From Ascidiella aspersa (lineage: Eukaryota), in the NCBI GenBank assembly GCA_963924565.1, contig OZ004611.1, positions 21,142,001 through 21,206,000 of the forward strand: DNA of 64,000 nucleotides, in the 5' to 3' direction. Of the stretch, positions 20,501 through 54,059 are shown piece by piece. The notes under the pieces are model-generated. The model ran no database searches, was not told the origin of the DNA, and saw only the letters and a list, made by a program, of their open reading frames with translations. The translations under genes were made by a program, and so were the position numbers. Positions within the stretch are counted from its first letter, which is position 1, and each line of letters begins with the position of its first letter.

Positions 20501-21865
20501 TTAATCGGAGTTTGCCCAAAATTATTTCTGGCATTGCATCTGTAATTCCAAAACTTATTTATATAATTTATTTATAACTCATAGAATGAGAAGCACTAAC
20601 GATAAACTTCAGTGTCACTTCTGCAGATTAAGGATATCATATATCAAAAACATGGGGATTGTATGTACCCCAAACACTACACATGTCTATAAACACAGTG
20701 AAATCTTGCACCACTTGGAACATGCACTGATAAGAAGCCTACACATTTATGTACACACATAGAGTGTAATCAAATACCCCCACTATTATGGAATAAATAG
20801 GTCTAAAACAGTCTGAGCACACCTGTTTAGATTAAATATACATAAATCCAGTAACTAATGCAAAAATGCTGCAACACACAATTTACAAGTCAGCTTAAAG
20901 CCTTTTTGTATTATTACAATGTATTTATAAATCAAGGTTATTGTTACAGTGTATTTGAACAAGTGTGGTATAAACTAAATCAATCTGCTTTTTTAATTAC
21001 AGGTAGTTGAAGGGGCAGCTATTTTATAACACAGCAAAATTAAAAAAGTCTTCCCTATTGAACAAACTTTCATTAAAAATAAAAGAGGGTAAATTGACAA
21101 AATTATTAATTAAGTTAATTACCTCCACCACCAGAAGAACTGCTGATATCAGTTTGGGAAGATTCTTCATTGCCGCTGTCGATTTGTGATATTAGAGCAT
21201 CGAGGTCAACATCATCATCTAAAAAAATTATGTCAGTTGAATACTTGCATTTATTTTTGAAAACACAAAAATTTGCATTTATTTTTGAAAACACAAAAAA
21301 GTGAAATAAATTAGATATATTACTTTTTTTGTATATAAAGTTTTGCCTGTTTGTTGCAACAAAAATAGTATGAAATATTGTGTAAAAAAGCGGGTCACCT
21401 TTAAGAGTTAACTGGTAAACTTTCAGAATACCATTAGCGAACTATTAGAAGTTTAATATAACTTTCTTCAGGTGGGAACTCTAAGAGCAGACTAACAATG
21501 ATGAGGGGTCAAATGTCTCTAGAGTTTGACGTAACAGATTTGTTCCTTAGGCCACTGAATAAACTGCTACGGTACAATAGAAGGCACTCTGTATGATGGG
21601 CACTTTGGTGTGTAGGCACAAGCTTTCAAGCAACAGTTCAATTGTTTGGCAAACGGCGGCAGAGCCCGTAATTGTGAAAATAGGCGCCCTCGAGAAGTAG
21701 GCATTATTTACAAAACATGACAGGCGTGGTCCGGCAATCGCCGTAACTCTATAGCCGCTGCGGAGAAGTGATTTACGTCAATGCTGACACCAAAGTCCTA
21801 AATTGATTACCTTTTGAGCTTAAGCCATTGAGCTCTTCTGTTTGCACGATAAGACACGGCTCCAT
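8585..21865 (-). CDS. GRB10: GRB7/GRB10/GRB14-family adaptor (RA-PH-BPS-SH2), ~17 coding exons; the N-terminus may extend into upstream exons
   Basis: Approximate exons: 21811-21865 (MEPCLIV..), 21123-21218 (DDVDLDAL), 18456-18582, 17908-18020, 17154-17201, RA 16812-16977 and 16304-16426 ([14 protein letters not shown]), 16039-16125, PH 15307-15440 ([28 protein letters not shown]), 14394-14508 (DPRHL), 13824-13920, 12821-12921, BPS 12197-12346 ([17 protein letters not shown]), 11533-11595, SH2 11068-11156 ([17 protein letters not shown]), 10557-10650 (TFLIRESQ), 8585-8731 ([25 protein letters not shown], stop). Probably a pro-ortholog of GRB7/10/14; the symbol names the closest-looking member. 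Confidence 0.9.
13039..13294. mobile_element. hAT-type MITE
   Basis: CAGGGTTTCTTAACC ... GGTTAAGAACCAATG termini; TSD CTTTAGTC/CTTTAGAT (6/8). Confidence 0.6.
13481..13788. mobile_element. hAT-type MITE
   Basis: CAGTGTTTCTCA ... TGAGAACAACTG termini; TSD GATTAGAC/GATTAGGC (7/8). Confidence 0.75.
14495..14740. repeat. Diverged ~124-bp tandem duplication spanning a GRB splice acceptor
   Basis: AGATGCCGGGGGTCCT...CCAAACTAGTGT...ACAAAT occurs twice with offset 124. Confidence 0.75.
17630..17892. repeat. Diverged ~145-bp tandem duplication in a GRB intron
   Basis: TTTTATACATTCT...ACGTCCA...AAGGCTTTAC...TATCACA...TGTTTACAA appears twice. Confidence 0.6.
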
Positions 21866-24800: not shown

Positions 24801-25139
24801 GTAAATCCGGCACGCGTATTGCGAAATCTCGTTACACTTCGAAAGTCAAACGAAGAACGTTAGTTTAGGCAGGCCGCAAATTATAGCGCTAAGCCGGATA
24901 CAAAAATCGAATTAACCTTTGTGCGTCTATGTCATGTTCAGCCGTAACTAAGCGTAACAGCGACACTAACCAGACTCGTGATTTGTCAAAGAGAACGTAA
25001 AAGAAACATGTTTACAATTTACAGTATTTGTCTTTTTATACTCTGCAAAAGTAAATGCACAACTGTGCGCAGTAGGCAAAAAATCACCGTAAACTCAATC
25101 TTGCAAATTATCTTTAAACTAAAACGTCGGCAAACAAAC

Positions 25140-25800
25140 TAGCTTTACTATACCTCTCCATTAATTAAAACCTTACGTAAAGAGTGACACCTTGAGCCTG
25201 TCAACCACGCAAGTAACTAAATTCGATTTCGCTAGTCGCTTGCAAACATCACGGAAAAAGTCGCCTTTCTTCGGCTTTAAGTCGAAATCTAATTGTCTTT
25301 GGCGCACAGACGAGGTGATAACGCATGAACGTTGGTCGAGCGATAGCGCGTCAAAGGCTACAGTGTGCATACACTGGCGCTCGAATACCAATACGACCGA
25401 CGAGCCGCGGCCGCGATGTTACGAGATATGAATGGAACAAGCCCTCGAACGGCGCGAGCACTCGTACCCGTGCCGCCGCTCGTCTACTTCAAACGGCGTT
25501 GCCGCCCGGACCGTTGTCGACGGGTGTGAATGAGCTCGTATTACGTCACTCTTTTTCGGCCGCTCGGCTGTTTATGGTCAGGAAGGAGACGGCGCGTTTA
25601 CTATTTGTGCGCGCAACCGGCGAATATGACATGAGCGTACGGTTTTGTGACACGTTTCTGCGGCCGCTGCCGAACACTTGAATTATTGATGCCGTTCGCC
25701 GATCGCCCCGCGTCGCCGCACGCCCAAGAATGCAAGGAATTTACAAGAAAATTGGCGATTGTAAATATGGGAGGGGAGTTCAATTCGGGCTCGAACGGAA
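25140..25800 (-). promoter_or_regulatory. CpG-rich putative promoter/first-exon region of the GRB gene
   Basis: Sharp CpG/GC island upstream of the first coding exon; minus-strand donor TTTAC|gtaagg at ~25177; a second candidate upstream exon ends at 22632 (ACG|gtaagt). Confidence 0.5.
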
Positions 25801-27088
25801 ATTGCTCTATGTAACACGCATGGGTACGACACGTCGATACTATTCCGTGTCTACCAAGATTATTAAAAAAGAAATATTATCTGACGTTATCGACAAATAA
25901 GCAACACTCTCCGAAATTCTACGCCCGGATTAAATGGATTATTTCTTTATTGTTATTACCAGAATATTATCGATAAAATCTGACCTTTATTGGCAAGCGC
26001 CTGCCTGGCCACAATTTATATTTGTTTACCGACACCATCACTAAAGTTTAAATATCCAAATTCCACTTCAACCAACATTCTTTCCAAAGGTTGCTTTGTG
26101 CATTTTTTTCATTTGGCTTGCCAGTCACTTGGTTATTAAGGCAGGGTCCTTGCTCTTTAATGCAAAAAAATAACAAACAAACAAACAAACAAGGAACATC
26201 GTATTCTTGCATACAAAAAAAAACGTGATTGATTAACTCCGGATAGCATCAGCGAACGCACGTCCTAAGCCTGGCGAAGCGGCAAATTTGTTATTACTGA
26301 GGTGTTTAGCACACAAGCCCTTCGAAATATATCAGCAAAAAGCACGACCCTGCGAAACGAACTTGCGATTGAAATGCGATCAGCTGAAGCAAAGCGTAAA
26401 GTGCCGGTTTATTTTCTGGGAAGGAATGAATCAACGGGTATTAACCTTGTCACCCTAAGCACAAGATTGAATTACGCCCTAGGACGAATGCGGGCGGAAT
26501 TTAAAGAAATATTTAGCGGGTGCTGAAACTAAACCGTGACACCAGGAAATGTAAAAGTACATCTCAGATTATTTAAGGACCAATTTATAAGCCCGACCCC
26601 TCCAATGTATAACTGGTCTGTATTAAATTGTCTCGCGTGTTTTAAAATAAATTAATATAACAAAACATTTTACTTGTCAACTGGATAATAGGGAGACCGA
26701 ATAATTATAGATTGTCGATTTTGTAGTTTATTTTAAAGAAAACACAACATCAAAAACGCGCAGTTTTAATGCAGCGCTGCACAATTTCCTTCAATTCCAC
26801 AATCCGTTAGGAACTCGCCAATAAACGCCGTCCAAACCTCGCTTTTATTGCGGTATACGAGCAATCACGGGGGGAAAACCACGTAAGTGTGACGTCATTC
26901 GCTTGCTTGGTGACGTCAATGCTATTCTCCAAGGGCCTGGCGCTGGCAGCAAGGCGAGATGAATAGAGCACTCCGTAGAGGCCGGAAAAATCGAAGTTTT
27001 CTGATGAAAAGTGACGAGGCGAGATTGCAGCGAAAAGCATCAGATCGCTTCGGATAGTTCTAGCTGGGACAGATCGCCCGAGATTCGT

Positions 27089-30000
27089 TCAAGTCTCCTT
27101 GTCCCGGAAGAACTGCGAAACAGATCGGTTTAATTATTAATCGAGCGGCGCATTGCGGGGCGCTGGTTGGTCGCGTGTATTAATGGTGGTTGGTCGCGTG
27201 GTCGTTTCGGTTGTCACCCGCAGATTTGAAACGGGGCAGCAAAAAGTTTTTAAACATGAATTAAGGCAACATGCTCACGATAAGGAATGTCGGATAATAT
27301 CAAAATCGGTGCGGATGCCAAACAAACTGATCAATAGGCATTTCAGCCATGGGTTGCAATTGAACGCACGATTTGTAGGTGTTTTCAAAACGTAAATGAC
27401 GAGCAACCGAATTGAACTTTGCACGCCAAAATTTTTTTTTAATAATTTTTTTAAAGCGAAATTATACCTTGATCATATTCGTCTAAGTGACCATAGTAAC
27501 TACGTCATTTGATTTTGGGCGGTCGCACTTTTGTCCAAAACTAAACATCGGGTATCGGTAGAGAATAAAATTTAAGGTACCAGATTTTCCAGCGAGACGA
27601 ACCTTTAACAAATCTCGGAATTCAGTAAACGTGGCTGGCACACGGATTTCAAACCTGGCGCTCGGAAAACGTTCGTTATCACAATTTTCCATCTCTTGTC
27701 TACATAATTTTTTTAAATACAGACAAGTCGTGCCTTGAGTATTACGGCGAACATCTCTCAATAGTATAGCGAGAAGGCAGATAAGGTGAATATACATAGT
27801 TATAACATATGGGGTTAAAATATTATTTGCAGTTTGTTTTCAGCTGATCGTTTTGCGGGCCCACAGTAAATAAATAGCGTCTTTAAAAACTATTTATTCT
27901 TGGTGTTGATTTTCGTTTAACATTTGTTAAACTTTTGGTTTTCGTTTATTGCATCTTTTTGTCTTTCATTATACAGTAGGTATAGTGCGCGAACTACAAA
28001 AATCTTAAAAAATTGTCATTACTAATAATACTCGTCGAAAAATCTTTTTGGGGATAAAATATTATACATGAAAGATTAAATATCAGGGTAAATATGAGAC
28101 AAAGAGTAAACAGGTAAAATTTAACCCTTAACTGAACTAACAGTGTTGCATATAAAATGGCGTTTTTCGGAATGGTTGCGATAAAACACTGTAAACCTTC
28201 TGAAAAAAAAACGCTTCGACGCAAAATTATGTCACCGGCCAAATTCGCCGCCCCTTCCCGCATTGTGGCTGTTTGGGTGGCGCGATGCACTTCGGCCCGG
28301 CCCTAGTGCCCTCAAGTGTACGGGAGAGCACACTCAGGCCCTCGGCCGCGAAATTGCAACAACGTAGCGGTCTGGCAATTGCGTCACGAAAAGAGGATGC
28401 GATTATCTGGAGTGCGCCCGTTTGGATTTCGCAACGCCAATGTCTCGCAACGATATCCGGAAAACAATGTCAATTCCGGGTAACGCCAATCAGCTATTGA
28501 AAATCTCACTGGAAATTCGGCAAATGTAATGACGAAATTACAAAATGACACAACACAAAAGGGGAAAACGCTGTTTCGGATAGCTGATGATATCTGTCTG
28601 ACAAAATCGACAAGCTGACGAACTGTTTCGTAATAAACAAAACAGAAAACAGCGTTGTTTTGTGTCTGACAACTGCTTGAGCAAGATATTACGTCATATT
28701 TGATTGACACCTAATCCAATGTGCATTAAAATTGAGTTGGGCAAGTGTGATGATGGTGATACAATATTAAATAATGACTTTTTGCTCGCAACGAGTGTTT
28801 GAAAGAAATATGTAACAGTGCTTCCACCTCATACAAATACCGGTCAAGGTTTTAAATTGATTGTGAAGTTGTTTGTCATGACTCATGACATGTTTTTAGG
28901 AGACAATTTTGCGAAAATTTACAAGAAGTTTTGCCCATTGTTAACTTAGGATTTGGAATTTTGCAGAACGTAATTTTTGAAGATTGAAAATTTGCAAGAA
29001 GATTTGCCCATTGTTAACTTATTTAGTAATTTTGCATGAAATTATCGAAGCTTGTAATCACCTTTCGAACGGCCACGCACGCTTTTCCGAACTGTTGCAC
29101 TTGTTGGAGGTGCGCCGCGATCCAACTGGGCAGTTTGCCGCTCACCGAAGCCTTCTGGTACCTTCTATCCAGCAGCAGGATGCACGCGTAGTCGGCCCTG
29201 TGTTACGTCACAAAGCACGTTGCATAACTCGGCGTTTTCAAACGTAAACAAGTCACCGGCTGCTTCAAACGGCAACAGATTTCGGCGGCGTTTATACGAC
29301 GCGCAATTTGCGAACGTCCGGTGTTTACGACGCGCTAGATGACGTCACTAAGCACACGCACCTGTGACGTATGGCGCGTCCGATCGATTGATTGACAGCC
29401 TTCATGCAGAGGTCCTCGTAGTGGACTTGGCCTCCGGTTCGTCCGTCCTTGTCTGGCGGCTGAAAAGGAGGTGTTATGTAACGCGAGAGGATTATGCGAC
29501 TGCGTTACATAAAAAAAATTCTAGGAATTTCCTCGTACTTTACTGGTAGTTTTCATAACAACAACGTTTTTTTGGGAAAACCAAGTTTAGTTTCGGGATG
29601 AACAAATTTGCTGGTTAATTTTTATCGCCAGTTATCTAATTTTAGTAAATTTGTTTACTTATCCAGAGATCTCTGTCCAAGATCTGCAATAAAGTTGTAA
29701 GCTCTCATTGAAGTTTTTTTTACGTTTGAAATACGAAAGACTGAAACAACAATTAAGCCAACCGTATTAAAATCAACGCTAGGCCTCGAGTCAATATTCT
29801 GCGACGTAAAATTTCAGTGTACCATGTTTTTTGTCAGGTAGTCCATCTTTTCTTTCAGCTCAAGCGAGTAGAGATTCGGGTAGGGCAGACCGACCATGAC
29901 CACGCAGCGTCCCATATCATCGGAAAAGTTTATGCCTTCGCTCATTTTGCCGCCAACGACGCTAAGCAAAATCGCCCCTTGAAACAAACGAAAAAAATAA

Positions 30001-33000
30001 AAGTGATTGTCGCAATTGCATTTAAATCTTAGACAAATAGGAAACGTATTGACGCTGGAATCAGCATTTTTTTGAGAAGGTCCACATGAAATTAGAAATT
30101 TGTTTTCTTTTGGGGGGGGGGACAAAAATAATATGAAGTAAGCGTTAGTTTTAAGAGAGTTGTTGAAAGGACTGTACTGACAAGCTGGTAATAACAGGGA
30201 AAGTTAGGTTGCCCATGTTTTGCTTACTTAATAAGATATTTCTTCTAAAATCGGCATAAAAACTCGGGGGCCAGCCAAGACCGCGGGCCATTATGTTTCA
30301 ATTCATTTTTTTGATTACATATTTCCCCCCTAAACGACTCAAAAACCTTTCCCAGACAACGCAAGTTTCTATGGCATGGCATTTAGCGGAAAAATATTTT
30401 CGCCATTTTCCTAATCTGCTTCAATTTCTTGGTCTAAGCACCGGGGTTGCGCAATCGGACGTCGCGGTAAGCAAGGGAAATGGTATGAAAAAATTACATA
30501 CAGCTTTCATGGTAATTGGTTGACTTTCTCGAAAAATTACGATATTTGTGCGGCATAAGTATTTCATTGACGTAGGTTTGGGCAAATTGGGTGATGTGAC
30601 CCGTTAAAAAGTTATGTTAAGCAAACAAGGACTCGCTAAACTTGTTGCGGCACACAACTTAAGTGATAAATTGGTCGAATTTAGCAACGGAAATATCTCT
30701 TGAATGATCACGAACCAGTTAAGAGGGTTATGTTTGTAGAACGCGTAAATGGAGATTATGATAGAAAGGCGAAATGTTTGTTTTTCGTTTTATCTCAAAC
30801 ACTGCTATTAGCCAGCTTTCGCAAATAGACCAGTACAAAAGAAGTCATTTATAGTATAGATTTTAATCACGAGAAGCTGTTCATATTTCATATATACAAA
30901 CTCCCCACTACACAACAATTTTATAGGCTTAGGTAAAAGCTGTGCTATAACTGCTATAATTCAAGGATTTGTTCCAAGACAAATTTATAAAGAGTTTGGC
31001 GGTTAAGATAAACGAACGACAATTAGCACAAAGTATTCGGCATTTCGGCGAGTTATTACATCTATACCAAAAACTCCGTCCAAGCAATTGAGCAAACGAC
31101 ATGCTGAATCGATAATAATTAATTCGTACGTAAATACAAATAAATTAGTGGACACCATTAGGAAGAAGTGGACGGAAATTTACAGAAAGCGTGCCAACAC
31201 TTTTGGCGAGTGTGATTCCGTCAAATTTAATTCAAATTAAACGGCGTATAACGTTAAACATGTCGGGTAAAACCGAATCTCATTTAAAAATGTGAAATTT
31301 TATTCTTTTAGGTGTCAGAAAATCTGCCACGCAGTGACGGTTTATAAACAGCAGTTTTAGTTGTTGTCTTTGTCCATGTTATTCTTGGATGTATTTTATT
31401 TATTTATTTTACATTTTAATATTTTAATATTTTTTTACTATTTTTTTGTGCTAATGATAATATTTACATGGCGAAATGCACATTATTAAAAGTTTTGCAC
31501 CTTGCTGACTGATTTTTGTTCGAAGCGGTGCGCTTCTCAAGGTATTAAACGAGTTTCGTTAGAAGTTTTCCCATTAACTGCTGCAGTTACCGTTGACTTT
31601 TGTCTTGTCCGCGTCGGAGGTCCGTTCAATGCACTTCGAGTATTCGGCCAGAATTTGCTCGACCCGATCAGAACGCTTCGGTTCCCTGAACACCTGTCGA
31701 TCACAAAGGAAGCGAACCGTGACTCATCGCGGTCCGGCGCAGGCGCCCGCCGAAAAATTTGACCCGAAATATGGACGAGGAAAGTCGGCGGTAAGAGGGG
31801 GTTAATTCGTAGCCCCGCCAATCAAACTAAAATCCATTATCCTGCCATGACGTCACACGAGAAGTGACTTCATGCATAAAGGGATCGTGGTTGCCATGGC
31901 GACAATCAACTGTAGGCTATGTTTTTATTCGCATAAATTGATTGACACCCCCGTTTCATGGCAACTTGTATAGCCTTTCTACTTATATTGAAGATTCTCA
32001 GCCTAATAATCATGTCGCGGTCATGGTACGTTTCCAGACGCGGCATATTTGGTATTTCTTCAGGATCAAGGATCTGTGCCATTTCTGCCCCAAAGCCTCA
32101 ACCCAAAAGGCAAAATCGCGGTTCGCAAAAGCAGCCAAAGCGGAAAAAGTAAACTTAAAAGGGTCGCCAAGTGAACCGCCGACCCAATGGCGCGGTAATT
32201 AGCACCGGAGCACGCGAGAAGCTGTTTCCCGGGTCACCCCGATAGCGGGTCAACGACTTACGCCGATCAGCTCGGCTTTTTCCTAATACGGCGCCGGGAT
32301 AAGCAACGCTGGCGCGACCGCTACCCTCAGAAACTTTCGCCGGCTAGACCCGCCGCCTTTTGTTGAAATCGAGCACCGCCGGGAGAAAAGCCGTTCGAAA
32401 AAGGCGAGAAATCGCGCAGAATATTCTCGAACACAAAGTGGCGATTAATGGCAACATTTTAGATGAAAATTTATTTGCAATCAATGATTGCAGCGGAAAT
32501 TATTAACTTTTTTCTTTCATAATCGCATAGAATATGTGTTTTTTTTTATTTAAATAAACCAAGCTTAGGCGATGAAACGCCAGGTTAGGAAAATAACCCC
32601 CCAGAGTAATCAAGTTTGAACTTACAATACGACTGTTGGAAAACGCACCCTCTAACTCTTTTTTTTTTTGAGCCACGTAACACTTTATGAATCTAAATAA
32701 CTTTCGATACACAAAACAAAAAAATTGTAATTTATTAATGCATGGAAATAAATAACTCAACAACAATTTATTTGCTTTCCACGTTTCTTAGTGCAATACA
32801 TGGGCCTGTTTGGATGAGAACAAAATTGACACTCGGGTCGTATTGCACCCAAGCAGCAACAGGCTCATGTAATTACAATTCTATCATTATAAAACCCCGG
32901 AAAAAAAGCTGTTCGGAAAAGGTGAGAAAGCGCGCAGAATGTTCTCGAACACTGCGTTCACCTTTAAACGCGGGCGGGCTAGCCTTACAGCAGGTGTTAA

Positions 33001-36000
33001 CTATAAGCGCGACAAACACAAGGTGCGAACCGTTTACGGAAACTTGAAACCAACAAGGCCACAGCCACCTGGGAAATCTTGGGCCAGCCGGTTTGCCTAT
33101 TGATCTATAACCGTGGTAAAGTATTTGTGGAAAAGTGATTTTGCGGGATTTTAACAAATGCCATATTTGTATTTAAAGGTGAAGCGATTGACGAAATATG
33201 TCAAAAGCCGCCGTAAGCAACTTTTAAAATTTAGGATGGCAACAGAACATTTAACTTTTAGAATATGTTTATTTAGTTCAAATATTCATTAGACTTTGCT
33301 GTGTAAGTCAAATTCAGTTATTAATTAGTTCTAGTCAAACAAAAGAGAAATATATTTCGCCACAAAACAGGGGTTACTTAAATTGAATAAATGTGCTCGC
33401 ACTAGAAGTCATTGTCGTCATTTACGTGTAAGGGTGAGGAGATATCTTCATATGTTTCACATTCAGTTTGTCAGTTATTTTGATTTTAAGCTTTGTATGT
33501 GTATTAACAACAGAATCTGGCCCTCCAACAGAACACATAATGCCGACGATAAAAGTTCTAAAATTTATTAATAAAAGCTTGAGAAGCGCACCGCTCCGAA
33601 CAAAAAGATTTTTGTTCGGAGCGGTGCGCTTCTCAAGCTTTTATTTTGATTTTCTGTTTTTTTTTAAGGGACATGGTAAATTGCTAATTTATACAAGGAA
33701 ATCACATGGCTACATTCGGGACTAAACATTTCAAAGCGACTTGCTACTTGGCGTGAAAAACCAGTCTCCTTTCAGTGATTTTCGAATGACGAAATTCGGG
33801 ACGATTACGAATACACAAATTGCCGAGCGGCGAGATAGCTATTTCAAGCCGGGCTCACTTGAAGAAGAGTCGAAACGCGAAACTACACGTGCGCCACTTC
33901 ACGTGTTGTCCCGGGCCTGGAAATGTGGACAATGTCACGTTCGCAGTTGGCGCCGCAAAGCGACGTCCCCACTGAAACGCAGCTGTACAACCAAACGGCG
34001 AAACGCGAAGTTAAAATCAACGAGCGGTGAGCGCCCGATAACGGGATCCCAGTGGGTATTTAGCCTCTCTAGAGCGACTAACGCATTAAAATTGGACGCG
34101 TTGAATGGCGTCACTTTCGCTTAGTTTCAAGTTTTCGATTTTTTTTCGCATTTGCAATTACGCCTCACGTATTATTTCTGTAGAAACATGAAAACGCAAA
34201 AGAGGCGGTTTTTACTCGTTTTTGAAGTCCATTTTTTTTTCATCAACATTTCCACCAGCGGCTTGCACTAAAAAGACGCAAACCATCGACAAATTAAATT
34301 AAAGTCGCAAATGAATAACGATATGAAGTTTTTGACGGTGTAGTGAGCCATTGATAAATGTCATTGGTGGTCCTCCTTTGGCGCACAGAAATAGGCTAGA
34401 AGCCAACTGGTTAAAATAATTCTTTATCGCATATTTTCGGTTAAAACCTAGCTCTATTTTACGGTACCCAAGCTTTGTGGAATATTTTTGCCCAATATAT
34501 TTTTATTTTGTTTTGGCGTTCATATTAGTAGTCCAAGTAGTCCTCTGTGCGAAGTTCAAGTCGATTTGTTTTCGGTGAAATTATAATTACCTATACATAA
34601 ACACTTTAAGTCAACAGCCATTTTAATTTAAACCAAGAAAGACCGTTGGCCCCCAAGCAATAAGGTTACTTTTTATGACGCCACGTTTAGATGTAACTTT
34701 GTGACGTCAAATTTTGACGTAATCTTGTTACGTGAAGGTATGGCGTGACTAAGTTATGGAACGTTATGACAGTTGGCCCCAAAGCACCGACCCCCAATTA
34801 TAAAACGCGTAATGCCAAAAAATGAAAACGTTTCAATTCTTAGCACTCTAAGTGGTGCAAACCTCCAAACGCTTATATTAACAGAACAATTTCGCGACCC
34901 ACAATTCCCTATAGCCTAAGTGCAAACGCTTTCTGTCTTTATCTTCTTTTTTTACCTTCTTTTTAGCCTCGATCCTCGTTAAGAGACCTGCTTCGCTCCA
35001 GCGGCGGTGAGCGGTGTTCTCGTAGTCGTACGACGGAAAAAAGCAGACCACGCCGCCCGGCACAAGGTTGCACAGGTTCAGGAGTGTGCGGCCAACTTCG
35101 TCGATCTGCAACCACAATTTGGCAGAGATTTATTTCGCTTATGTTAGAATTGGACAACGTCGGGACTCGGCGTAAGGTCTTAGTCGGTGTTTTTTTGGTA
35201 GGCTTGCAATTATACGAGACATTTTTGTACGTTAACTTACACGACAGGGGCGACCAGTGGCGAATCGAAGAGAAACAACGTGGCCATGTCCCACACAAAA
35301 AATGTTTTTTGCCTATTTTAAAGTAAAATATTTAGCCCAAATGCGTCGTACGTCCTTTAGTGTAACATCAAAAATAAAAGTTTAAGCAACTTAAACCTTA
35401 TAAAATAAAGCGTTTTGCGCTATGCTTGGATCGATTACATCGTTTAAGTAACAGCTGTCCAATCTAAAACTTAAACGAACTTTTTGGTGTTTCTAAAGTT
35501 ACTTTTAGGACGTCAGTTTAGATGTAACATTTTGACGTAACAGTGTGACGTCACGGTATGGCTTGACTATGTGACGTCACGTTATGACGATACTTTGTGA
35601 TGTCATCTCTGAAAAAAATGTCATGCCCCACCTCAAATTAAATTCCTACAGATGCGCGCCTGCTCGCCATTGGGAAATACATAGTTTTATAGGCAGGGCT
35701 CAAACCGAAAAATGAGCACGCTACTGATGACCAGGGCAAGATCCATAAAAATAAAAATGGATCTTTTTTCATAAAATAAAATAAAAACTTAAAAACACCT
35801 ATGTTGGTATGCGCAAATTGTAGCTTTGAAAAAAAATTTGATTGAAAATTGGTAATACCTTTTATTTAACAGACCTGCTGGCGCCTTAGGTCCGGGGCAT
35901 TTTGCTTGTAATGAGATTATTTCCTTGAACGATTTGCTGTAATTTCAAAAATGTTGCTACTTGTCGTAACATTGTGGGCGCTAATTGCTGTTTTTCCAAA

Positions 36001-39000
36001 GCCTCTATAGGTTAGAGTGTTTCCCAACGTGGCCGGTACCGCCCCCCTTTGGACGTTGAAAAGTTACAGGGGGCGTTGTGAGTTTCTTGATTAAGGGGGC
36101 ACCAAACCCACATTATGGGTGTTCATAAAATTTTATCGTATCACTAATTATACTAGTTGTATCACGCTACAGCTACAGCATAATAGTTCACAAAACTCGT
36201 TAACTTACAAATATTATTGTAAAATTTAGGCCATTGTTTAAACTTGTATATCGTGGTAGCCAACTAGAAAGACACGAAATGCGTTATCTCTTCCTTAACG
36301 TACTTTGTCAACTGTCAAGAGACACACAACAATTTGACAAACACTTAAACAAGTTGTACTGTGTAGTGACCACTATAGTCTATAGGCCTACATAAAAAGC
36401 AGCATGCCGTGACCCATGGTTATCTAAGCCTGTACCACTGCACAATATTGCTTTATAAATGCGTAAAATTGCCACAGTTTACTACTTTCACAATCTATTG
36501 TTATTATATTATATAATGCATTGTTTTATAATCTGGGTCAAAGAACTTGGTAAATATAAATAAATGAAGTTTCTCACTCCTCCGTCAAAGTGAAATAATT
36601 GATAAAGAACACTTTTAGAAACTAAAATAAGACAAACTAAGCACACAACTCTAAAATAAGTTCTTAGACATAAGCACATTAGTGTTCTCTAAGACACTGC
36701 ATCCAAAAATAAGCACAAATCTTAGAAATAAGCACGGTATGGCAACCCTGTTTATAGAATATCTGCTATGGTGAGCACGAATACAGATTGCAACGCGTTT
36801 GACAGTGGAATTTAATAAGGATTCTCGTGTAAATAGTGAATGCGCTGGACTTTTACCATGCGTCATTCGCTTGTTTAATTCGCCGTTGCAGTTGTATCAT
36901 CAGCAATTTACGACATATTGGCCTTTGGTGTTTAACATAATTAGTGACAAACAGTTATTGGCGTTCAACCTAATTCGTTGCAAATTAACTCGTCCACCTA
37001 GCAACAACAATTTTTTGCTGAAAGGCAAATATGTCAATCAGCTCTCGCCCGAAGCAAATTGCATGTGCATTGTCGGCGAGTGCAAAATCTCAACCCTTAG
37101 TTAGCCGTGCGGAGAGGAGTTCTGTATCGACCTTGTGGGATTCGGTTTAGGTTCAATTTTTAGAGTTTGGGAGTGACGGATTTTAAACAGCCCTGACCAC
37201 AAGTGGTAATCACTCAGTTTTCTCCAGAATTCGCGAATCGGTATTTAGACAAAACTTTCTCATTACAATGAAATGCATTGCTTCTTGCAGGTGGTATTTA
37301 AACAATATAAACGCAACTTATAAAAAAACATGTTTTTTAAGTTATAAAATCGCGATGACAATCGTTTTCTTATATTTTAGACAATCCCATATACATCAAA
37401 TAAATAAGTTATATTGGTAAATAGAGCTTGGTTGATAATTCCGTTTGGTTGATAATTTCAGAAAATGGCGATATTTGTAACGAGTTCGAATGCTATATAG
37501 GTTGAGCTTGTCGTGTCCCTACTGGTAACACTATAATCCCAGCAAACTCCCCTGTTTTATCCTTAACAGCGAGAAACCGGTTTCGAGGCTTTGAAATCTC
37601 GAGGGCTGCGAATCGTCATGAATTGAAAGCGAAAACAGCGATGAGAGAAAGCGCGCAGTTGCGATAAACGACCCGTGCCTTGTTTGTCGCGGCTTGTATA
37701 CGCACTTCGCGCGTCGGTCCTATGACTCACGACGCTGTACTGGCTTTATACCCAGGTCAGCGAAACCGCTTGCGCAAAGGAAAACACTTGGCGAACGTCG
37801 CGAGTGTACCTGCACGACAGAGCGTGCACGCACATACACACACATTCGAACGCGTCGAACCGGGGTGGTGTAAAAGTCTGTTAAACATTTTCACCGGCTA
37901 TGTTTTTGTTGATTGTGGCTTTAGAAAACTAGGTAATGCATATCGTTGAAGGTACCGCGAATACGTGGAATGCTTCGAAAGCAAACCGGCTGAGAACAAG
38001 AGCGTATCCTGTTTAACAAGGAAACCTGCACACACATATGTGTGTTAACCACTGTGATCTACCCCTTCTGAAGCTGCTTTTTGACAACAAATACGGCTTA
38101 CATATCATTAGCAAACCGAAAGCCATCGCAGACTAACCGAATCTGTCAATCAATGATGCAAGCAGGGCAGGCTAGAAAAATTTTTCAAAACTTTTCTAGC
38201 CTGCCCTCCTTGTAGCTTAGATCGACAGATTCGTTGGGTCTGCAATAACTTACGGTGTACTATATTTGACAAGGTTCATACAATTTGTGTTGTCGATGCT
38301 ACTCGAAAAATCTATAGACGAATTTTAATTAGTCATATTTCAAAACTAACAATTTTTTATGACCTGCAACTAATGAAAGGTAAAACAACACAAATGTAAC
38401 GTAATGGTTTGCATTAAAATGCAATTTACAAAAAATAAATTGCACGGTCAATACGCGCAATAAGCGGTTTAAGGATACATGCTCATAGCCCAGTTAAAAA
38501 GGATCAGCTTATACACTATGTTAGGTAATTTAAAAGCTATTAGGAGTGATAAGAGTTGCGTGTATTCAACCTCCGTACTCCCCAAAAGACAAACACTACA
38601 AATGCGGGCAACCAATGCGGTTTCTCGTTAAGGGAGAAAATTCTACAACGTTGTCCAAAGATAACAAATATCGCCTGTTTCGCTGCAGCGTTACACAACT
38701 GGGGAGTACGCCAGCCGACGTACGGGCACACATATTTAATTAAGTTAAACTCTGTGCATCAGATATACCCTTCAAATGGTGGACACAGCTAGATACGAGG
38801 ATATTTCGATCAGTCGTCATATAAAAATGTTCAAAGCGGCATTTATCATCCACACAGTGGCGAATAATGACAACATTTTAGATCATACATGCAGTGGCAA
38901 TCATGAACTTTTTTTATTTCGTCATCGCATAGAATATGTGTTTTTTCTCAATACGTGGGCCTGTTTGTATGAGAACAAAATTGACGTTCGGGTCGCATTG

Positions 39001-42000
39001 CACCTAAGCAGCAACAAGTTCACGTACTATTGCAAAACGAGTGTTATTGTTACACAACAATAAAATAGACGAATGACAATAGAACATTTTAACTGCTGAT
39101 AGCCTACCTAAAACAAAATCTAACTACGTTCATTGTGTTATACCAGTTTTGACTTCAATTTCTTGCGGAAACCTGACGATCTTCAACGAAATACCGGTTG
39201 AACATCACTGCTTTAACTCACAGTTTGGGCTATTGGACCAATCGTTAAATATTTGTTTTGTTTACATTATAACAAGTGGATATAGACATGAACAAAACCT
39301 TTCAAATGCTTAAAGACATTTGGAGTTTCATACGAGCGTTTAACGATTGCATTCCAGTGCCTTCCCGCAAAATATCTTGGGCATTGAATTCTTACCAGGC
39401 AAGTGACAACATTTGGCGTGAAGTATCGCCAACCTTGTAAATTTGCAATAAAAAAATGGTTGTTTTGTGCGTATATATATCGTTCTATTTTGGCGTATGA
39501 TTTTGGCAAATTTTTTTTTTGCGCAAACCTTTGCCGGCCACAAGTTATGAAATGCAGTCAGGAAGATTGACCTCACTAACCAGCTAATTTATCTTTTGCA
39601 TATTTACTTATGGATTCAGCAAATATATTTAGGGGTTAAACAGATTCTATCATGTCTAAGAAATCTATTGTTACCCCGGGCCACGGTTTAGATCAGTGAT
39701 TCCCAAACTGTGTGTCGCGGCACACTAGTGTGCTTCGAGAGATTGTCAAGCGTACCCAAACATATTGTAATTTTGGAAAAAAAGTTATTAGTATTACCAA
39801 TAGACGCACACACGCAAGCATTTTAGACCTAAATACGCACAATCCATTACAAATCAACAATATTGAGACATTTACATACATTGTGTGTCGTGTGTTGAGG
39901 GCAATTGTAAAATTACTCTATTGTTGTTCTGTTAAAAGTGCACCGCGAAACATTTAAGATTTTTTTAGTGTGCCCCAAGCTAAAAAGTTGAGAACCACTG
40001 GTTTAGATTGTGGTTCGGCTTTGCGAACTCCAGAACAATGAGTCTGTTTTCGCGTAACACGTGATGGGGGTGACTCAGGTAGGCATTGTACTTAATTTCC
40101 GTAACGAGAAAGCAAAGTCAACAATTACACTCCGGATATAAATCGCACCCGTGAATGGCACTACGCATTTAAACAAGGCCGAATTACGCACACCGAACCG
40201 CCGTCCGTAATTCAAACACCATGGGACAGATTTGTCGTCACTGAAAAAGTCGGAGCAGTTCGGTATTTGCTTTGTTTGCGAATTCGATGATTTGTGAATG
40301 ATTCATGCGGTGTTTCGATTGCTTTGCCGCAGCAGACAATTCAGCAACAACGTAGACAGAAAATGGACGAAACGGAGGTAAATTAACTTCGTGGTGATTC
40401 GACTTGGGCTTATGACGCTGAGCTAATCCTTTTACGTCGAACCCAACATTCTTTTGCGGTCCGTTGGCATTTTTTGTGTATTTGAAATAAACTTTCTCAG
40501 TAAAAAGTGAAGTACCCGTCGAAAGTAACTTGGCTTTTTAATAACACAAAAGCAAAATTATGTTCACTACCTTAAAAACATCACATTGGCACGTTTTAAT
40601 TACATGAATTCTGTTCATTTGTCATTATAATGACAGTATTTGTAATCGGATTGAACGGCTGTAATATTTTAAAATATCGGTTATCGAATAACATTCGAAG
40701 TATCCGAAATCCCGCACAGCGGTCATAAAATACATAATAATGGATTTTGTTGCTACATTTTACAAATCATAACACGATTTAGCCAATTGAAACCTAAAAA
40801 TATACGTAATACCATCACCCATACTCCTATTAGACACCAGATTTTTTTTTTGCTTTTTCTCGACTCGTTCCCTTCTGAGCCTGCATAGCTCAGTTGGTAG
40901 AGCGACGGTCCCGGCTTGACCGGAGGTCGTGAATTCGAACCTCACTTCAGGCTAGTTGTTTTTCTAGTCTGCCCTGCTTGCATCATTGATCGAGTCTGCA
41001 ATGGCTTTCGGTATACTAATGATATGTGAGCCGTAATCGTTGGTCAAAAAGCAGCTTCAGAAGGGCAAGATTTCAGTTGTAAACACACATATGTGTGTCC
41101 AGGTTTCATTGGAAGCTATTAACCAATTAAAATTAAACAGTATGTCAGCTTAGAATACTCCTCGACTTTATTTATGCAGCTGTGCAGTTTGTTAGACCAG
41201 GAGTTGCCAACCTTTTAGGCCTTAGGGCTAACCTTCATGAAACATAAATACTTTGCAGCACCTTAGTAGTATTTTCTCTAAGTGGTTAACTGTAGTGTTA
41301 CAATAAACTAACTTGAAGCAGTGTACATCAACTGTACACAAGGCAGAAAAAAACAGTGGATTTGCTGACTTCCTTTGTTAAATATCTCTTGACAATCAAG
41401 GATTATAAATTTCTTTCGATACCCTTTTGAGTTAGAAATGTCAGTTTGTGTTGGGTTTTCGCAACCTACCATTTTGGGGTTTCCCCTTTTTTCAAAGGTG
41501 AACTCAAACGCCTCGCCGCTCGGTCCGCTGGAGAGCGCCAGAGGAAGCAACTGTGCGGCGCCGTCGATCACGTGACCGCAGGAAAACTCGACGATGCGTG
41601 ACCGGTGGCGTGAGGTTTCCGCGTGGGCAAGCAATTGGTCGACGAGGCATGACGATGGCTGCATCGTACCGCCGGCCACTATTAGGGATCTACAGTCCTG
41701 CAATGTACGGGGAAAGCGACGTTCAGGCATAAACATTAGTTTTTTTTTTTAAGTCAGTTTTACTTTGGCCTTCAGGATATTTTTAATTTTAGTATCTGTT
41801 GAACCTATACTAAAGCATGGTAAGTAGCCCTACAGTACTGACCACCTTTATTCTTCATGATCTATGTACTACAAAATGAAAATCCACGGGAACCGGAGAA
41901 TCTACAGAACTCATATTAGATAACGTGGTGTAATGACTTAAGTCAATTACTTGACTTAAGTCTTTTGGACAAATGACTTGGTTTGAAATGAAGTGTTTTG

Positions 42001-45000
42001 TATTTCTTCTTGCTCTCATTTTTACTTCACTTGACTTGCGCAACTGATGACTTGGACTGGGACTTGACTTGTTATTTATTTAAAAAGACTTGACTTAGAC
42101 TTAAGTTATTTTACAAATGACTTGACTGGGACTTAGTAATTTAAAAATGACTTGTTTACAACACTGTTAGACAATGCTGGTTTACACCATGGAGATTCTT
42201 TAAATCCAGCTGCGCAAGTACCACTTACGTCCAGTATGTCCTTGAAATGCAGCGACGGATTCAACAAAAGGAACTTTAGGCCGGCTTCACCGTTCGTTGA
42301 CGTCACAGCAACCCGCGCGTCACGGCTGCATGACGTAAGAGAGCCGATGAAGCTTTCGACGTGCAGGAGCGGCGAACGCATTGTGACGTCATCGTGTGAC
42401 AGCGGTGGTTTGGAATCGCCCGGAGATTCTGCTTATTTGATAAAACAATTTTGTTTAAAATAATTTGTTATAAGTTTTAGAATAACGATAAACGTCGACA
42501 AATCAATCTGAAGCGTCTAATCAAAAGACAACGAATTAAAAAGGGCAATGTGTAGTACTTCGGTTAAATCTGTTTGGTTATCACATAATAAAATACTGTG
42601 ATTTTAACAGTTGTTATATCAGCAACGCGATCAAAAAAATATATAAGAATCATAATTTGCGATTTAAACTAACTTGTTGTTAAAATTCTTGTTAAAACCG
42701 TTTTTTAGGAATTCTGTAATTCTAATTCTAATCTTATTTTAAAACGCTATAATAAATCTAGTTGTACAAGTCTGTCCTGTGTCCTGGTTAGCATGCCACA
42801 AACCAAATAATACCTTTTCCAGAATTTTTGACGTCTTTCAAAAACGTGGAAAGAGACGACGCGGATTCGATTCCAGCTTCACACTTCTCCACGAATCCGG
42901 AAATCTTCTTGGCGATTTGACTTCTTTTGCAATATTTCAGCAACTGATAAAAATAAATGTTACAAAGATTAAACGATAAAGTAGGCGTGTGCTATAAATT
43001 TTGAGGTTTATTGGAAATACATTATCGTTGGTAAGTGCGACCTTCTAAGTGACTGAACACAATTATAAACACAAACGAAGACATAGTCCATGTTACTCTT
43101 CTCAGTATACTCAGGGATCACATGTTCTCATTTAAAATAATTACATTTTTTTTCTAATGTACATTTTTTTTTCTGATTAATTATGGGTGATAAAATCAAA
43201 AAAAATGAATGGTCCCCATTAAAGACACTGAAACCACACAAATCTCCTTATTTTTGCATATGGCGTTTTTTCCTAGAATTATTAATGATATTTTTATTTG
43301 TCCTTTCGTAGACGGAAAGAGTTTCAACCATTTTTTTTAACGTATTACCGAAAAAAAACATGAGAAAAACTAAATCACTTATGGTGTAGAAGAGTTTAAA
43401 CACTTATGGTGTAGATGAATTTAAAATGGTTTAGGGGTAAAGAGAGGTACTCACTGTCGTAACAGGGTTTTTTTGTGATGCCAATTATGCATATACTTAT
43501 ACAAAAAAGGTGAAAAATTCTTTAAACCTAAAACTTCACTGGAATTGTACAATGTACATACAAGACTCTTTTTTGTGACGAAAATGGTAGGGATACTTTT
43601 ACAGCCGTTTAAACTTCTGCATTTACCTTGAAAAAGTTGATGTTGTCCAGTGAGCAATGAAATAAAAAGTCGTTGATCGTAAATAGTTTTTCTGTCAACG
43701 TCTTTTTTTCTAAAAATAGACATCAAAGCGTGATCAAAGATATATTTCAGAGGTCGTTCTGTATTGTGGATATGTTACTAAATGATTCTAAGGTACAAGA
43801 TCGTAAATAAATATAATCTCTTATTGCAATGAACAAGTAAGTATGGACTGCGATTAACACGAAAGCATTACTGTTTTTTTTTCGTTTGAGTGAGGATTTA
43901 CGCAAAAAGTCAGTTTAAATAAACTTTCTTTGTGACTAAACTGTTTCGTCGTCTTGTCGATTTTAAATTTGTGTGCCATAAGTGAAACCAAACTCAAATT
44001 CAACTAAATAAGCTGCTCTTTATCATTGATGTGGAACCAGAATCGTTTGTTTTCACCATTCGGATTCAGGCAGATTTTGTTATTCGAAAGAATACTTTGA
44101 TTAAATAAGCTGCTAATAATTAAAAAACTTCAAGTTTCTTTTACAAACAGCAATAAAACTACTTATCAGCTGTTTTAAACTACATTGTTGCAAACAATGC
44201 CCTTTGTCATCTAACAACATTACAAATAACTTTACAGTGAAATGTAAACCAAAAGGTTAAATAGAAAATAATTAAGTGGATGTTTTAGCGACTTTTAGAG
44301 CATCACATTGATTTTTTTTTTTGTACACAACAAAGTAAAAAAAATGATTACACCGAATAAAAAAAAGTTTCATTTTGGATTTTATTCAAATTTAACTGGT
44401 TTTACCAGAAAATTTTCCTTAATATTACGTCATAAAACATATTGTGTTGCCTAGCAACGAAAAGTTGACAAATTGCCAAAAAAATCGGAAATTCAGTTGA
44501 GACTAGAGGAGGATTTGGTGTACAGGTGCGATTATTTGAGAGCTATTTTGGAGAATTTAAGTGCTATTTTGAAAATTATTGAGAGTTATTTCGGAGAGTT
44601 TAGAGAAAAAGTCGTTGAGACTTGCAGCTTTTGAACGCGCAATGGCATTCAAAGCAGTTTGGATTCTGCTTGCCGTGTGCATTGGCGTATTTTTTGTGAG
44701 ATGTGGAGCGGTAACTGAGGTGCCGCCGCTGAATGATCATCCCACATATGCCGATCTTCGATTGGTTTTGGAGGAAAAATACAACAAAGGGATTTTGGAA
44801 ATTCAGCAAAAACAGGTGAAATAAATGGAGAAACTTTAAAAACCTTTTTAAAATCCAGCAAAATAAACTCATACTAAATTATATGTCTATAATTTATTTA
44901 AACTTCGATTAAAGTTCGTGTTGACAAAATGCCTAATCGCTCAATAAAATTTATTTACTGGATTTTTTTTGTAAACAGTATAAGATAATGTGCACTGTAA

Positions 45001-48000
45001 AAAATATATAAACATATATTACTTTTTTCACAGGATGATTCATTGACATGGTTCGGTTTGAACCCACTGGAAGTATGTGAATCGGCTGAAAACCTAATTG
45101 GACTTGACATTTGTGGCCCCATCAAGGCTTTATTTGCCCGAACAAGAGAACACGAAACAGTAAGTCAGAGTATAGAGAGTTCAAATATATACAAAGCACT
45201 AAAACCACGTTAATGTTAGTATTGTTGTCGTTGTTAAGTACGAACCTTAATACCTTGCTGACTACGCAAGTTGTTTCAACCGTTTTTAAAATTTTCAAAG
45301 TCAGTACACATTTTTTAGCCAAAAAGTGTAACGTAAAATTAAATTATTTTTTTTTAAAAGGTTGCTTTGGCCAAAGCGCTGCATCTACCGCCACCGCGTG
45401 GCGTGTGCCGCAAACGGCGACTCGCGAAATTGGAAACAGCTTTGGTAAGTTTAAAATCGAAGGACAGCGCATGTTTAAATTTAGTTCGCCTGTCGTTCTG
45501 TTGCCTTGGTAAACACAAATCGAAGGCCAAATTTAAAAACAAAAAATATATAAAGCCTCTCTACTCAATTTCCAGAAATCTATCAAAAATCATTTTTAAG
45601 TACGCATAGAAGTTGTTCAAGTGTTATTTCAAAAAAAGCAACATATTTTGAATTCGATTTAGGTTTTAGAAGACATCGACTACGCGCCTGCAAGCGCAGT
45701 AACACAAACCAGTGATCCGTTGGCGGCAATGAGTTGGTGTATGTTCAACAAGGCGATTTGTGTCGGATGGGCAAACGCTAAGGAACGGGCGGCCATAGCA
45801 GAAAGCGCGATTCAAGCACAGGTAAGACTCTTGGAGCTCGGTTTTAAACCAAATTTGACGTAAACCACAAAGCAACTTACGATAAGTCCGTATATATTTC
45901 TATCTGAAACCGGTTTGTAAACGAAAATTTGGGAAAGGTGTAGGATTGTTTATTCAGTCAAACGCTAAATAATGATTAGTTATTAAGTCCAACGCTAAAA
46001 AATAAAATAAACCAGATTACAGTTTTAAAAATAGCGACAAGACAGTGGTGAACCTAGGATGGACCTGACCTGGCCATACATTAACCCGTCATTATTGCCG
46101 TGTCGCAAAATCTCTTTAAGTAACGTTTTAACCCAGTTTTTAATGCCGTGTCATTTAGTAACCTATTATTTCTTTGGTTTTAGATCGACACACCGGGATT
46201 CGAGAAGAAAAAGTTCATTCAACCGGTGTTGATCGACTCGCGACTGTTCTATCCGCTACTGGCCCTACTATTTTGCGCTTTTCTGCGGTTCAGAAAGCGA
46301 CGCGCTTATCCTTACATTTCGCCATGATTTTCAATAAAATATAATTATTTTAAAGCCGTGTATTGGACTGTTGGACGTTGGTGCTATTACTAGGGTTGTG
46401 TTTTATCAAAAAGCAGCACATTTTTTCTAGTTATGAATATGGTTTAGTGGTAAAACTTTTTTAGAATATCCGGTGACTGAGCCCGAAAGTTCTTGTGCGA
46501 GCCTTTTTGGCAAATGTTTTCAAAAAAACAAACGTTTAGCGTTAATACACAAAAACATATTTTTGGGATACGTTAATTTTGGGTAACTACTATTTTCCTT
46601 TATTTTTTTTACAAATATAACAACAAAGATAGTGGTGATTTTATTGCAGGATGTAAGTTTTTACTAAGAGCAGTTTTTCTCGATATTTTTTAGGCGGCGA
46701 CCCGCATACTGAGTAAAACAACAATTCTATTCACTGATAGTTTTTTGTAAAGCAAACAAAATAAAAAATAATAGCATAAAAATAAATGAATTTAACTAAC
46801 ATAAATCATGGCTTCGTATGACTTTCGCAATTTTCTCTAAATTTGGATAGTTTCTGATCAGAACCAATCTCATAAAATCTCAAACCATATAAAACTACTG
46901 CAGTCGGAGACCAAACCAAACCAAAACAAACAGCAAACACATTGATTGCGAAACACTTACTTGGAGATTGGCAATAAACATAAAACGTTCTTTCTTAAAC
47001 AGAAAAGGTCTTCTTACTCACCCTTGCTCGGCGCCAATGCCTCTTGCAGACGTTTCACCACGAATATGAGCTGATTGACGTAAAAAAGATTTTTAGCCTT
47101 CAGTCGCTTGATGAATTTCTGCTGATATCGAATCAGCTGGTTCCGCGCCTGCGTCACGCATTTTCCAGAAATCTTCAAGTAAAGATTTGAAAGCAAAGCG
47201 TCAATTTTCGATACAGATTTATGCAGGGATTTTAAATGGTTGTAGTTCTATACCAGGGGTGGGAAAATGTATTCAATGGAAGAGCCATTTGCAAAAAATA
47301 AAAGTATCAGAGAGCCTCAAAATTATTTCAATACAAAAACGGTAAATAATGTAAGTTCAACAATAATAACAGAATTGTAATATACCAAAACGGTATCAAT
47401 TCAACACAATAATAATAACGGTAATAGCAAAATAACACGCACAATATTACCAATATCAGTATTTTGTTTGATTTGCTAATCTCTGAAACATTAACAATAA
47501 AATTGCGTTGACTTGTTGTTAACTATCTCTTTGATTCTATGTCTAGGGTTACGTCATAAACGAAATGCTGGCCTTAAAAAAAGAAAAAGGGAGAAACGTT
47601 CATAAACGGTACTCTTTGGTAGCCGTTTGTTGTTTTGGAATTTTACGATTCTACTAGAAGAGCCACAAAAAACATGCCGGCGAGCCGCATGTGGCTCACG
47701 AGCCGCAGTTTGCCCACCCCTGTTCTATACAGTGTAGTTATTTTAGGTTCTGCAGTATATAGTTGTTCTATTTTCTTTTTCTTCACGTTTCAAACCCGTA
47801 TTAGATGTCGACAAATCATCTTTTACAAGATGCAGCATTCAAATCAGACCAGGGGCTTGCTCTCGCAGTTACCGATATCTATACGTACCACAAGGCTTGT
47901 ACTATTTTTCTCAGTATTGTTAAACAATTCATGATATATTTAATTTAAGAACGGATTAAAGTGTAACGATGTTTCGGCGCATGCTGTAGTGTATTTTAGT

Positions 48001-54056: not shown

Positions 54057-54059
54057 TAT

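Follow-up and report, generated by a model that had tools for sequence, protein, structure and literature searches.

Paired RFX X-box and CRE sites occur in three introns of a DDX11/Chl1-type helicase gene. A sequence-only reading of this DNA took the last pair to precede a nested gene and the other two to mark further promoters, so that these introns would host a battery of co-regulated ciliary or germline transcription units, or starts for truncated DDX11 or GRB transcripts. Which of these sites serve as promoters, and what do the others do? We addressed this question in the window, the whole stretch of 64,000 nucleotides that was analysed.

Three X-box/CRE modules lie within DDX11 introns

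The host gene (27113..52070, minus strand) carries DEAD_2 and Helicase_C_2 matches, and five of its exons align to an ortholog locus of a related species, L001, at 65–91% amino acid identity. Its 5′ introns are mostly short and its 3′ introns span 1.6–6.4 kb, among them those that contain modules 1, 2 and 3 (29061–27113, 34955–31694 and 47021–42944, respectively, minus strand). All three paired modules that had been read from the letters were confirmed in the sequence.

Module 1 (27487..27522, unstranded) lies in the last DDX11 intron and consists of an X-box, GTGACCATAGTAAC (27487–27500), a CRE-like site, TACGTCA (27501–27507), which abuts the X-box without a gap, and a GC-box core, GGGCGG (27517–27522). 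The terminal exon with its 3′ UTR (26710..27112, minus strand) follows 375 bp beyond the module; it has an acceptor at 27112 and seven codons to the stop, and its 3′ end is approximate, with AATAAA at 26849 and 26732. Minus-strand RNA over this exon amounts to 0.91 in the bin 26584–27250, or about 1.5–2.2 per exon base. A location of module 1 outside DDX11 is ruled out by this exon, its acceptor and its RNA.

Module 2 (31813..31965, unstranded) contains a full CRE (31848–31855), a CCAAT box (31818–31822) and a main X-box (31890–31903), as had been described. The GC box proved only partial (CCCCGCC, 31813–31819, overlapping the CCAAT box), and the second X-box (31953–31965) is weaker, with two mismatches to the two-half consensus, and fails the strict published consensus. 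A DAAF9-domain Pfam match over the second X-box (E 0.003, 20 residues, score 17.9 versus a cut-off of 27) was judged to be chance. The GC/CCAAT/CRE/X-box architecture of module 2 looks promoter-like, an observation that speaks against an enhancer role.

Module 3 (44425..44498, plus strand) comprises a CRE-like site, TTACGTCA (44425–44432), a perfect 13-bp X-box (44446–44458) and an initiator-like TCAGTT at 44493. The X-boxes at 27487, 31890 and 44446 all match the strict consensus RTNRCC N1-3 RGYAAC, which we took from PMC2375033. The gap between CRE and X-box is 0, 34 and 13 bp in modules 1, 2 and 3, and because it differs, no fixed RFX-CRE grammar emerges, a point against composite elements. 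At each of the three modules the DNA depth is that of a single copy (about 59 at module 1), ruling out a transposon origin from high-copy families.

The modules share a CpG-rich domain (24801..49500, unstranded; CpG o/e 1.30 versus 0.55 and 0.57 on the flanks), which also contains 26 CRE-core sites and which, judging from its CpG content, may be unmethylated. DDX11 is followed, in the same orientation, by a putative GRB7/10/14-type adaptor gene (8588..22750, minus strand) with a PH match (E 1.5e-6) and a weak RA-like match (E 0.008) in Pfam; its SH2-like last exon has no Pfam match, and the family name is our reading of the exon translations. Its 5′ end possibly lies in a CpG-rich stretch at 25.2–25.9 kb.

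X-box and CRE pair more often than local chance predicts

Of the five strict X-boxes in the window, three have a CRE core no more than 50 bp away. Across 300 block dinucleotide shuffles, the number of X-boxes averaged 1.03 (maximum 4) and the number of pairs 0.023 (maximum 1). With the real CRE positions kept, the binomial p is 0.0008 for the window and 0.002 for the CpG-rich domain, values to be read with a 50-bp cut-off picked when the motifs were already known and with the window itself as background. X-box and CRE thus pair above local chance, and the pairing that the sequence-only reading had emphasised stands out against a local background (3/5 paired, shuffle mean 0.02). A looser, window-wide set of ten X-boxes gives p values of 0.008 at 50 bp, 0.046 at 100 bp and 0.20 at 200 bp. 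Furthermore, a GC-box core occurs within 40 bp of just 2 of the 26 domain CRE cores, namely those of modules 1 and 2, which are both ordered GC-CRE-X; 3.6% of the domain lies within 40 bp of a GC core.

We consider it unlikely that only module 3 is functional and that modules 1 and 2 are post hoc chance pairs in a CpG-rich, CRE-rich region. This explanation draws on the frequency of CRE cores (26 in the 24.7-kb domain, about one per kb), many of them inside repeats or coding exons, and on the near-perfect X-boxes that coding exons also contain; in the looser set, two of the three perfect X-boxes fall inside probable coding exons (11573 and 49381). Very many windows were scanned, so that p values of 0.001–0.01 are expected somewhere. 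In addition, modules 1 and 2 have no RNA beside them in the sampled library, and no counterpart of either was found in L001. Set against it are the low shuffle and binomial probabilities and the GC core of module 1, which the sequence-only reading had not named and which fits the order of module 2.

The comparison with L001, a single species, covers modules 1 and 2, since that locus lacks the intron of module 3. In the intron orthologous to that of module 2, the module is absent, and downstream of the penultimate exon, where the last exon was not located, the X-boxes are unpaired. None of the three strict X-boxes in L001 is paired with a CRE, and between its non-coding DNA and that of the window nothing is alignable, with alignment scores inside the null. 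The lack of alignable sequence and of an X-box+CRE pair in L001 speaks against composite elements. One sequence common to module 1 and L001, TGACGTAG, is not significant, with two copies in L001 and three in the window.

Module 3 precedes an expressed antisense gene

As the sequence-only reading had it, module 3 precedes a nested gene (44642..46327, plus strand), with its X-box 183 bp upstream of the ATG at 44642. The five-exon open reading frame (44642–44815, 45034–45159, 45361–45444, 45663–45821 and 46184–46327) lies entirely within the DDX11 intron 47021–42944 on the opposite strand, and all four introns are GT-AG. It encodes 228 amino acids with no internal stop and eight cysteines, and AATAAA follows at about 46333. 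Plus-strand RNA reaches a depth of 21–29 at the seven listed positions in exons 1 and 2 and is 0 at intron position 44960; the stretch covered by the RNA takes in these two exons and stops short of exons 3–5. The bin of the nested gene holds about 8,165 aligned RNA bases. In the sampled library this RNA is about 10 times deeper than that of DDX11. No junction reads for the gene are among the 15 joints listed of 620.

The protein has a hydrophobic N-terminus, as in a signal peptide, and a hydrophobic segment from about residue 196, as in a C-terminal anchor, suggesting a small single-pass membrane protein without a detected relative. Exons 1 and 4 have no homolog at E<=1, a weak blank for such short queries. 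For exon 2, a search of 1.84 billion proteins gave a single match, to a protein with a matrixin domain plus repeats (34%, E 5e-5 summed over four repeats), which we judged weak. There was no usable match of the exons in Atlas, no Pfam match for any of the five exons (short queries), and no relative of the whole protein in 80 loci; exons 3 and 5 were compared with Pfam and the 80-locus set. With no homolog identified for the protein, the ciliary or germline label attached to these units finds no support. The literature covered, with subscription journals mostly outside it, contained no report of a DDX11-nested gene or of an ascidian X-box+CRE module.

Modules 1 and 2 are RNA-silent in the sampled library

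The RNA evidence comes from one library and 6% of its reads, and trans-splicing could conceal a start. In this library, the bin of module 1 (27251–27917) has no RNA on either strand, and the bin after module 2 (31920–32586) has 0 plus-strand bases and 40 minus-strand bases. Over the exons of DDX11, depth is 2.1 on the upstream side of the two modules and 0–2.2 on the downstream side, so that 3′ coverage shows no step-up past them in this library. A splice-site gene finder gave no convincing gene model after either module; this finder is crude (its sites were chosen automatically for 6 of the 15 donors and for as many of the 15 acceptors, some probably wrongly), and its control was only partly recovered. 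A codon-usage model was too weak to use (leave-one-out exons -0.19 to 0.25, background -0.30 +/- 0.21). The Rfam matches were limited to hairpins scoring under the threshold and a single tRNA-like one.

Less probable again, in our view, is that modules 1 and 2 are cell-type-restricted promoters, active for instance in testis or ciliated epithelium, that drive either truncated DDX11 or nested units, the one at module 2 being read from the plus strand, opposite to DDX11. Their motif order is promoter-like, the stretch 32000–32460 downstream of module 2 is CpG-rich (GC 0.53, CpG o/e 1.41), plus-strand RNA amounts to 193 bases in bin 32587–33253 and 300 bases in bin 30586–31252, and the ATG at 32012 could open a plus-strand model with three exons and 238 aa. 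That model scores 12.5, lower than 6 of 42 arbitrary starts (maximum 16.8) and than the control (20.2); its exon 1 has no plus-strand reads, its exon 2 starts at a dispersed repeat, and the bin over most of its exon 3 has 20 bases. Three candidate open reading frames had no Pfam match at threshold, and in the vicinity of modules 1 and 2 no Rfam family reached its gathering score. Units under common control should be expressed together, but in one and the same library the nested gene is transcribed while the flanks of the other two modules are silent. The missing step-up in DDX11 depth argues against truncated DDX11. In mouse testis, moreover, the RFX2 and CREM gene sets are described as nearly distinct (PMC4498915). 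With modules 1 and 2 RNA-silent in this library and no counterpart of either found in the one related species compared, the idea of a battery of hidden units under common control is unsupported.

More doubtful still is an RFX/CREB cassette in the 3′ introns of DDX11, a housekeeping helicase gene, made up of the orphan membrane-protein gene and cell-type-restricted starts at 32 kb (antisense) and 27.4 kb (reading through the DDX11 terminal exon into GRB, with its trace removed by trans-splicing); if true, it would couple DDX11, GRB and the orphan gene in ciliated, neural or sperm-forming cells. Least probable is that module 1 is an upstream GRB promoter, transcribed leftwards through the DDX11 terminal exon, with an outron that spliced-leader trans-splicing removes and that is invisible in RNA-seq: the order of module 3 (CRE, X-box, start) would by analogy point module 1 towards GRB, a minus-strand initiator-like hexamer lies at 27399, and Ciona trans-spliced genes lose their start sites from the mRNA (PMC4691747), but such hexamers are common (1.3 per kb), the outron would measure 2–5 kb against a Ciona mean of 438 bp and mostly <500 bp (PMC4691747), it would have to pass a strong splice acceptor of DDX11 as well as poly(A) signals, the CpG-rich candidate promoter at 25.2–25.9 kb is closer, and trans-splicing in this species is assumed from Ciona.

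Discussion

We give an even chance to the reading that all three modules are RFX-CREB/ATF composites, with module 3 a promoter and modules 1 and 2 enhancer-like, yielding at most unstable RNA, or else silent in the tissue sampled. At each module, an RFX factor would bind the X-box and cooperate with a CREB/ATF-type bZIP factor on the CRE. Module 3 would act as the proximal promoter of the nested antisense gene. Modules 1 and 2 would be enhancer-type elements, without a stable transcript in the sampled tissue, and their target may be a neighbour in the CpG-rich domain, either the nested gene or the GRB-type gene, the closest one to module 1. The enhancer role of modules 1 and 2 was reached by elimination, in a single library.

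In human neurons, RFX3 and CREB are reported to share 567 sites, with RFX3 promoting CREB binding (10.1101/2025.02.27.640588). The modules resemble those co-bound elements in having an X-box beside a CRE in one element, and differ in being known from sequence, in a tunicate-like genome and inside the introns of a gene unrelated to them. RFX and CREB motifs are reported to have both promoter and enhancer activity, and RFX motifs to be biased to distal enhancers and to raise eRNA (PMC4971761). Such distal enhancers likewise carry both kinds of motif outside promoters; their activity was assayed with reporters in mouse neurons, whereas modules 1–3 are read from DNA letters. The RFX/DAF-19 ciliary promoters share the strict X-box consensus of the three main sites and, for module 3, a position 183 bp before the ATG; in the Drosophila work, RFX regulation is not predicted by the X-box alone, and the best predictor there was conservation across species (PMC2375033), of which the comparison with L001 gave no sign for modules 1 and 2. 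The nested gene also differs from those targets in having no known ciliary homolog.

The MHC class II S-X1-X2-Y module combines RFX5, CREB and NF-Y with a fixed X1-X2-Y order and spacing. Module 2 is similar in having an X-box, a CRE and a CCAAT box. The modules depart from that class in their spacing (0, 34 and 13 bp), in the CCAAT box in one of three and in their palindromic, RFX1-4-type X-boxes; without the fixed order and spacing they do not belong to it. Antisense nested genes inside introns are a familiar arrangement, which the gene described here follows as a multi-exon gene on the opposite strand of an expanded intron with what is probably its own promoter; it differs in encoding a protein without a relative in exon-wise searches. 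RFX5-CREB cooperation is also stated in 10.1101/2025.02.27.640588.

The general lesson is small because RFX+CREB composite elements and nested genes are both known kinds. Locally, the gain is a candidate RFX target without detected relatives and two testable elements near GRB. If RFX-CREB pairing were general in tunicates, which reaches beyond one window, the cooperation would date to the tunicate-vertebrate ancestor.

Pairing of X-box and CRE sites in DDX11 introns

The minus-strand DDX11 gene extends from ~52070 to its terminal exon at 27112, as judged from Pfam matches (DEAD_2, Helicase_C_2), exon boundaries and the first exon. Its introns contain three X-box and CRE clusters: module 1 (27487–27522) in intron 29061–27113, module 2 (31813–31965) in intron 34955–31694, and module 3 (44425–44498) in intron 47021–42944. 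Every motif named in the sequence-only reading was found in the sequence, confirming its motif observation, with the second X-box of module 2 being weak and its GC box partial. With the strict X-box consensus of PMC2375033, the window contains five X-boxes, three of which have a CRE core ≤50 bp away; in post hoc tests against a local background only, 300 shuffles gave a mean of 0.023 pairs (maximum 1), and keeping the real CRE positions gave p values of 0.0008 for the window and 0.002 for the CpG-rich domain (24801–49500). A looser X-box set (n = 10) gave window-wide p values of 0.017, 0.031, 0.008, 0.046 and 0.20 at 20, 30, 50, 100 and 200 bp, respectively. In a GC-box test of the same post hoc, local kind, a GC-box core lies ≤40 bp from 2 of the 26 CRE-core sites in the domain, those of modules 1 and 2 only. 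Full CREs are abundant in the window (12 versus 0.75 in shuffles), some fall within a repeat or coding exons, and coding exons also carry near-perfect X-boxes (49381, 49763, and probably 11573). Chance as the source of modules 1 and 2, which this abundance would favor and the pairing statistics disfavor, is unlikely.

Three of the 12 full CREs belong to a repeat family (34677–34770 and 35521–35605) whose 26-bp units abound in CRE-like octamers. At 26890–26918, within what is probably the DDX11 3′ UTR and 570 bp away from module 1, a weak X-box-like site is flanked by two full CREs with 21 bp between them. A weak X-box-like site with two full CREs (63626–63672) overlaps a short open frame at the GC-rich window end.

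An expressed nested gene behind module 3

The proposal that module 3 precedes a nested gene is borne out by an expressed, spliced plus-strand ORF behind it, which runs from an ATG at 44642 to a stop at 46327 in five exons (GT-AG at 4/4 introns, 228 aa, zero internal stops). An initiator-like TCAGTT lies 35 bp downstream of the module 3 X-box, and the protein is hydrophobic at its N-terminus and from about residue 196. We mapped ~6% of the single RNA library X3 (7.79 million records) onto 25250–45240, with nested exons 3–5 outside that stretch. In bin 44593–45240, first mates map to the minus strand at a depth of 12.6 and are absent from the plus strand; since DDX11 exon bins show the opposite mate bias, the nested-gene RNA is plus-strand. 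The seven variant exon positions have a depth of 21–29, against 0 at position 44960 in an intron; four of these variants are synonymous, three are nonsynonymous and none creates a stop. No junction reads appear among the 15 joints listed (605 further unlisted), and the X3 mapping reported no pile-up of starts or ends.

Exon-wise homolog searches were blank or gave weak matches, and no link to cilia or sperm was found. Exon 2 (45034–45159) bears a weak resemblance, probably by chance, to the matrixin/peptidoglycan-binding protein P0113 in its C-terminal repeats (34–36%, E 5e-5 over four repeats). An additional one-mismatch X-box lies inside intron 3 (45500–45513).

RNA and gene models at modules 1 and 2

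The sequence-only reading further held that modules 1 and 2 mark hidden ciliary or germline units or starts of truncated transcripts. In the mapped part of X3, the module 1 bin and two bins rightward contain zero reads on both strands. Bin 26584–27250 holds 607 minus-strand bases, a depth of 1.5–2.2 over the DDX11 terminal exon, and internal exons have depths of 1.1, 1.6 and 2.1, with one at 0 (only a few reads each); because terminal-exon depth resembles that of internal exons, nothing points to internal DDX11 starts. Just after module 2, the next bin contains 0 plus-strand bases versus 8,165 for the nested gene, and a high-copy repeat makes up most of module 2's own bin (31253–31919), which is therefore unreadable. 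Plus-strand bases in bins 30586–31252 (300) and 32587–33253 (193), one or two reads each, are unexplained; they may be repeat matches, because most reads (2035 of 2124 mapped) fit only partially. A crude gene finder, compared with 42 arbitrary starts, scored module 3 at 20.2, exceeding 42/42 (maximum 16.8), module 2 at 12.5 on the plus strand and module 1 at 5.4 on the minus strand, with no model in the remaining two directions.

The pairing and the module 3 gene thus stand, but hidden units and internal DDX11 starts at modules 1 and 2 do not appear in the mapped part of X3. Tissue-specific units hidden there, with the X3 reads against them, are quite doubtful, and the germline label is weakened by a report that RFX2 and CREM drive nearly distinct gene sets in mouse testis (PMC4498915).

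One high-copy repeat carries a perfect 37-bp hairpin (33570–33645), and a partial copy lies close to module 2 (31513–31547); the only miRNA matches are below threshold. A tRNA-Ala-like sequence (40878–40954; ARAGORN, Rfam 43 bits) within a very high-copy repeat is probably a tRNA-derived SINE or MITE.

The CpG-rich domain and a related locus

CpG o/e is 1.30 across 24.8–49.5 kb versus 0.55–0.57 on both flanks. In Ciona, gene bodies are reported as the methylation target, with promoter or intergenic DNA unmethylated (PMC3827831). By that pattern, the greater part of DDX11 appears to sit in an unmethylated domain, a setting that would fit regulatory DNA. Downstream on the same strand is a gene (8588..22750) that we read as GRB7/10/14-type (PH match, weak RA-like match); module 1 as its trans-spliced start is improbable, given that Ciona outrons are reported to average 438 bp (PMC4691747).

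Among 80 retrieved loci, a close ortholog is L001, a related species' DDX11 locus (90% on the query exon), which is likewise CpG-rich (CpG o/e 0.86–1.38) and has the same exon pattern with similarly long introns. Module alignments to L001 score within the null, and 0 of its 3 strict X-boxes are paired with a CRE core; module 3's intron is absent from L001, whose last exon was not located. This lack of conservation is mild evidence, because exons alone align. An overlapping CRE-half/X-half site (9987–9999) and a perfect 13-bp X-box (11482–11494), both downstream of the penultimate DDX11 exon in L001, could be counterparts of module 1 that have undergone turnover, at no significance in the test run.

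A 4,366-bp tandem duplication (51941–60684) with almost identical copies (alignment score 4355 of 4366), real or an assembly artefact, contains the first exon of DDX11 and the DNA upstream of it, together with one GST-C (metaxin-like) exon and one exon of RPL23; the second DDX11-exon copy is cut off at the junction. DNA run X2 mismatches only 6 of 3,274 bases at 25675–28948, versus roughly 0.4–3% in its other listed pieces, which may reflect constraint or, equally, a shared haplotype. For an RNF181-like ORF in the window, the best named matches come from Ciona intestinalis (59%) and Clavelina lepadiformis (56%), other matches reach 65%, and on this basis the source is treated as a tunicate.

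Proposed RFX and CREB/ATF composite elements

The most likely reading, which we hold with even confidence, is that each module would be a composite element for RFX and CREB/ATF, one of the three acting as a promoter and the other two as enhancer-type or tissue-silent elements that may target GRB or the nested gene. In mammals, RFX and CREB co-binding (10.1101/2025.02.27.640588) and dual promoter/enhancer activity of RFX and CREB motifs (PMC4971761) are reported. RFX/CREB composite elements and nested genes are both already known, and the firmest result of the analysis is the orphan nested gene.
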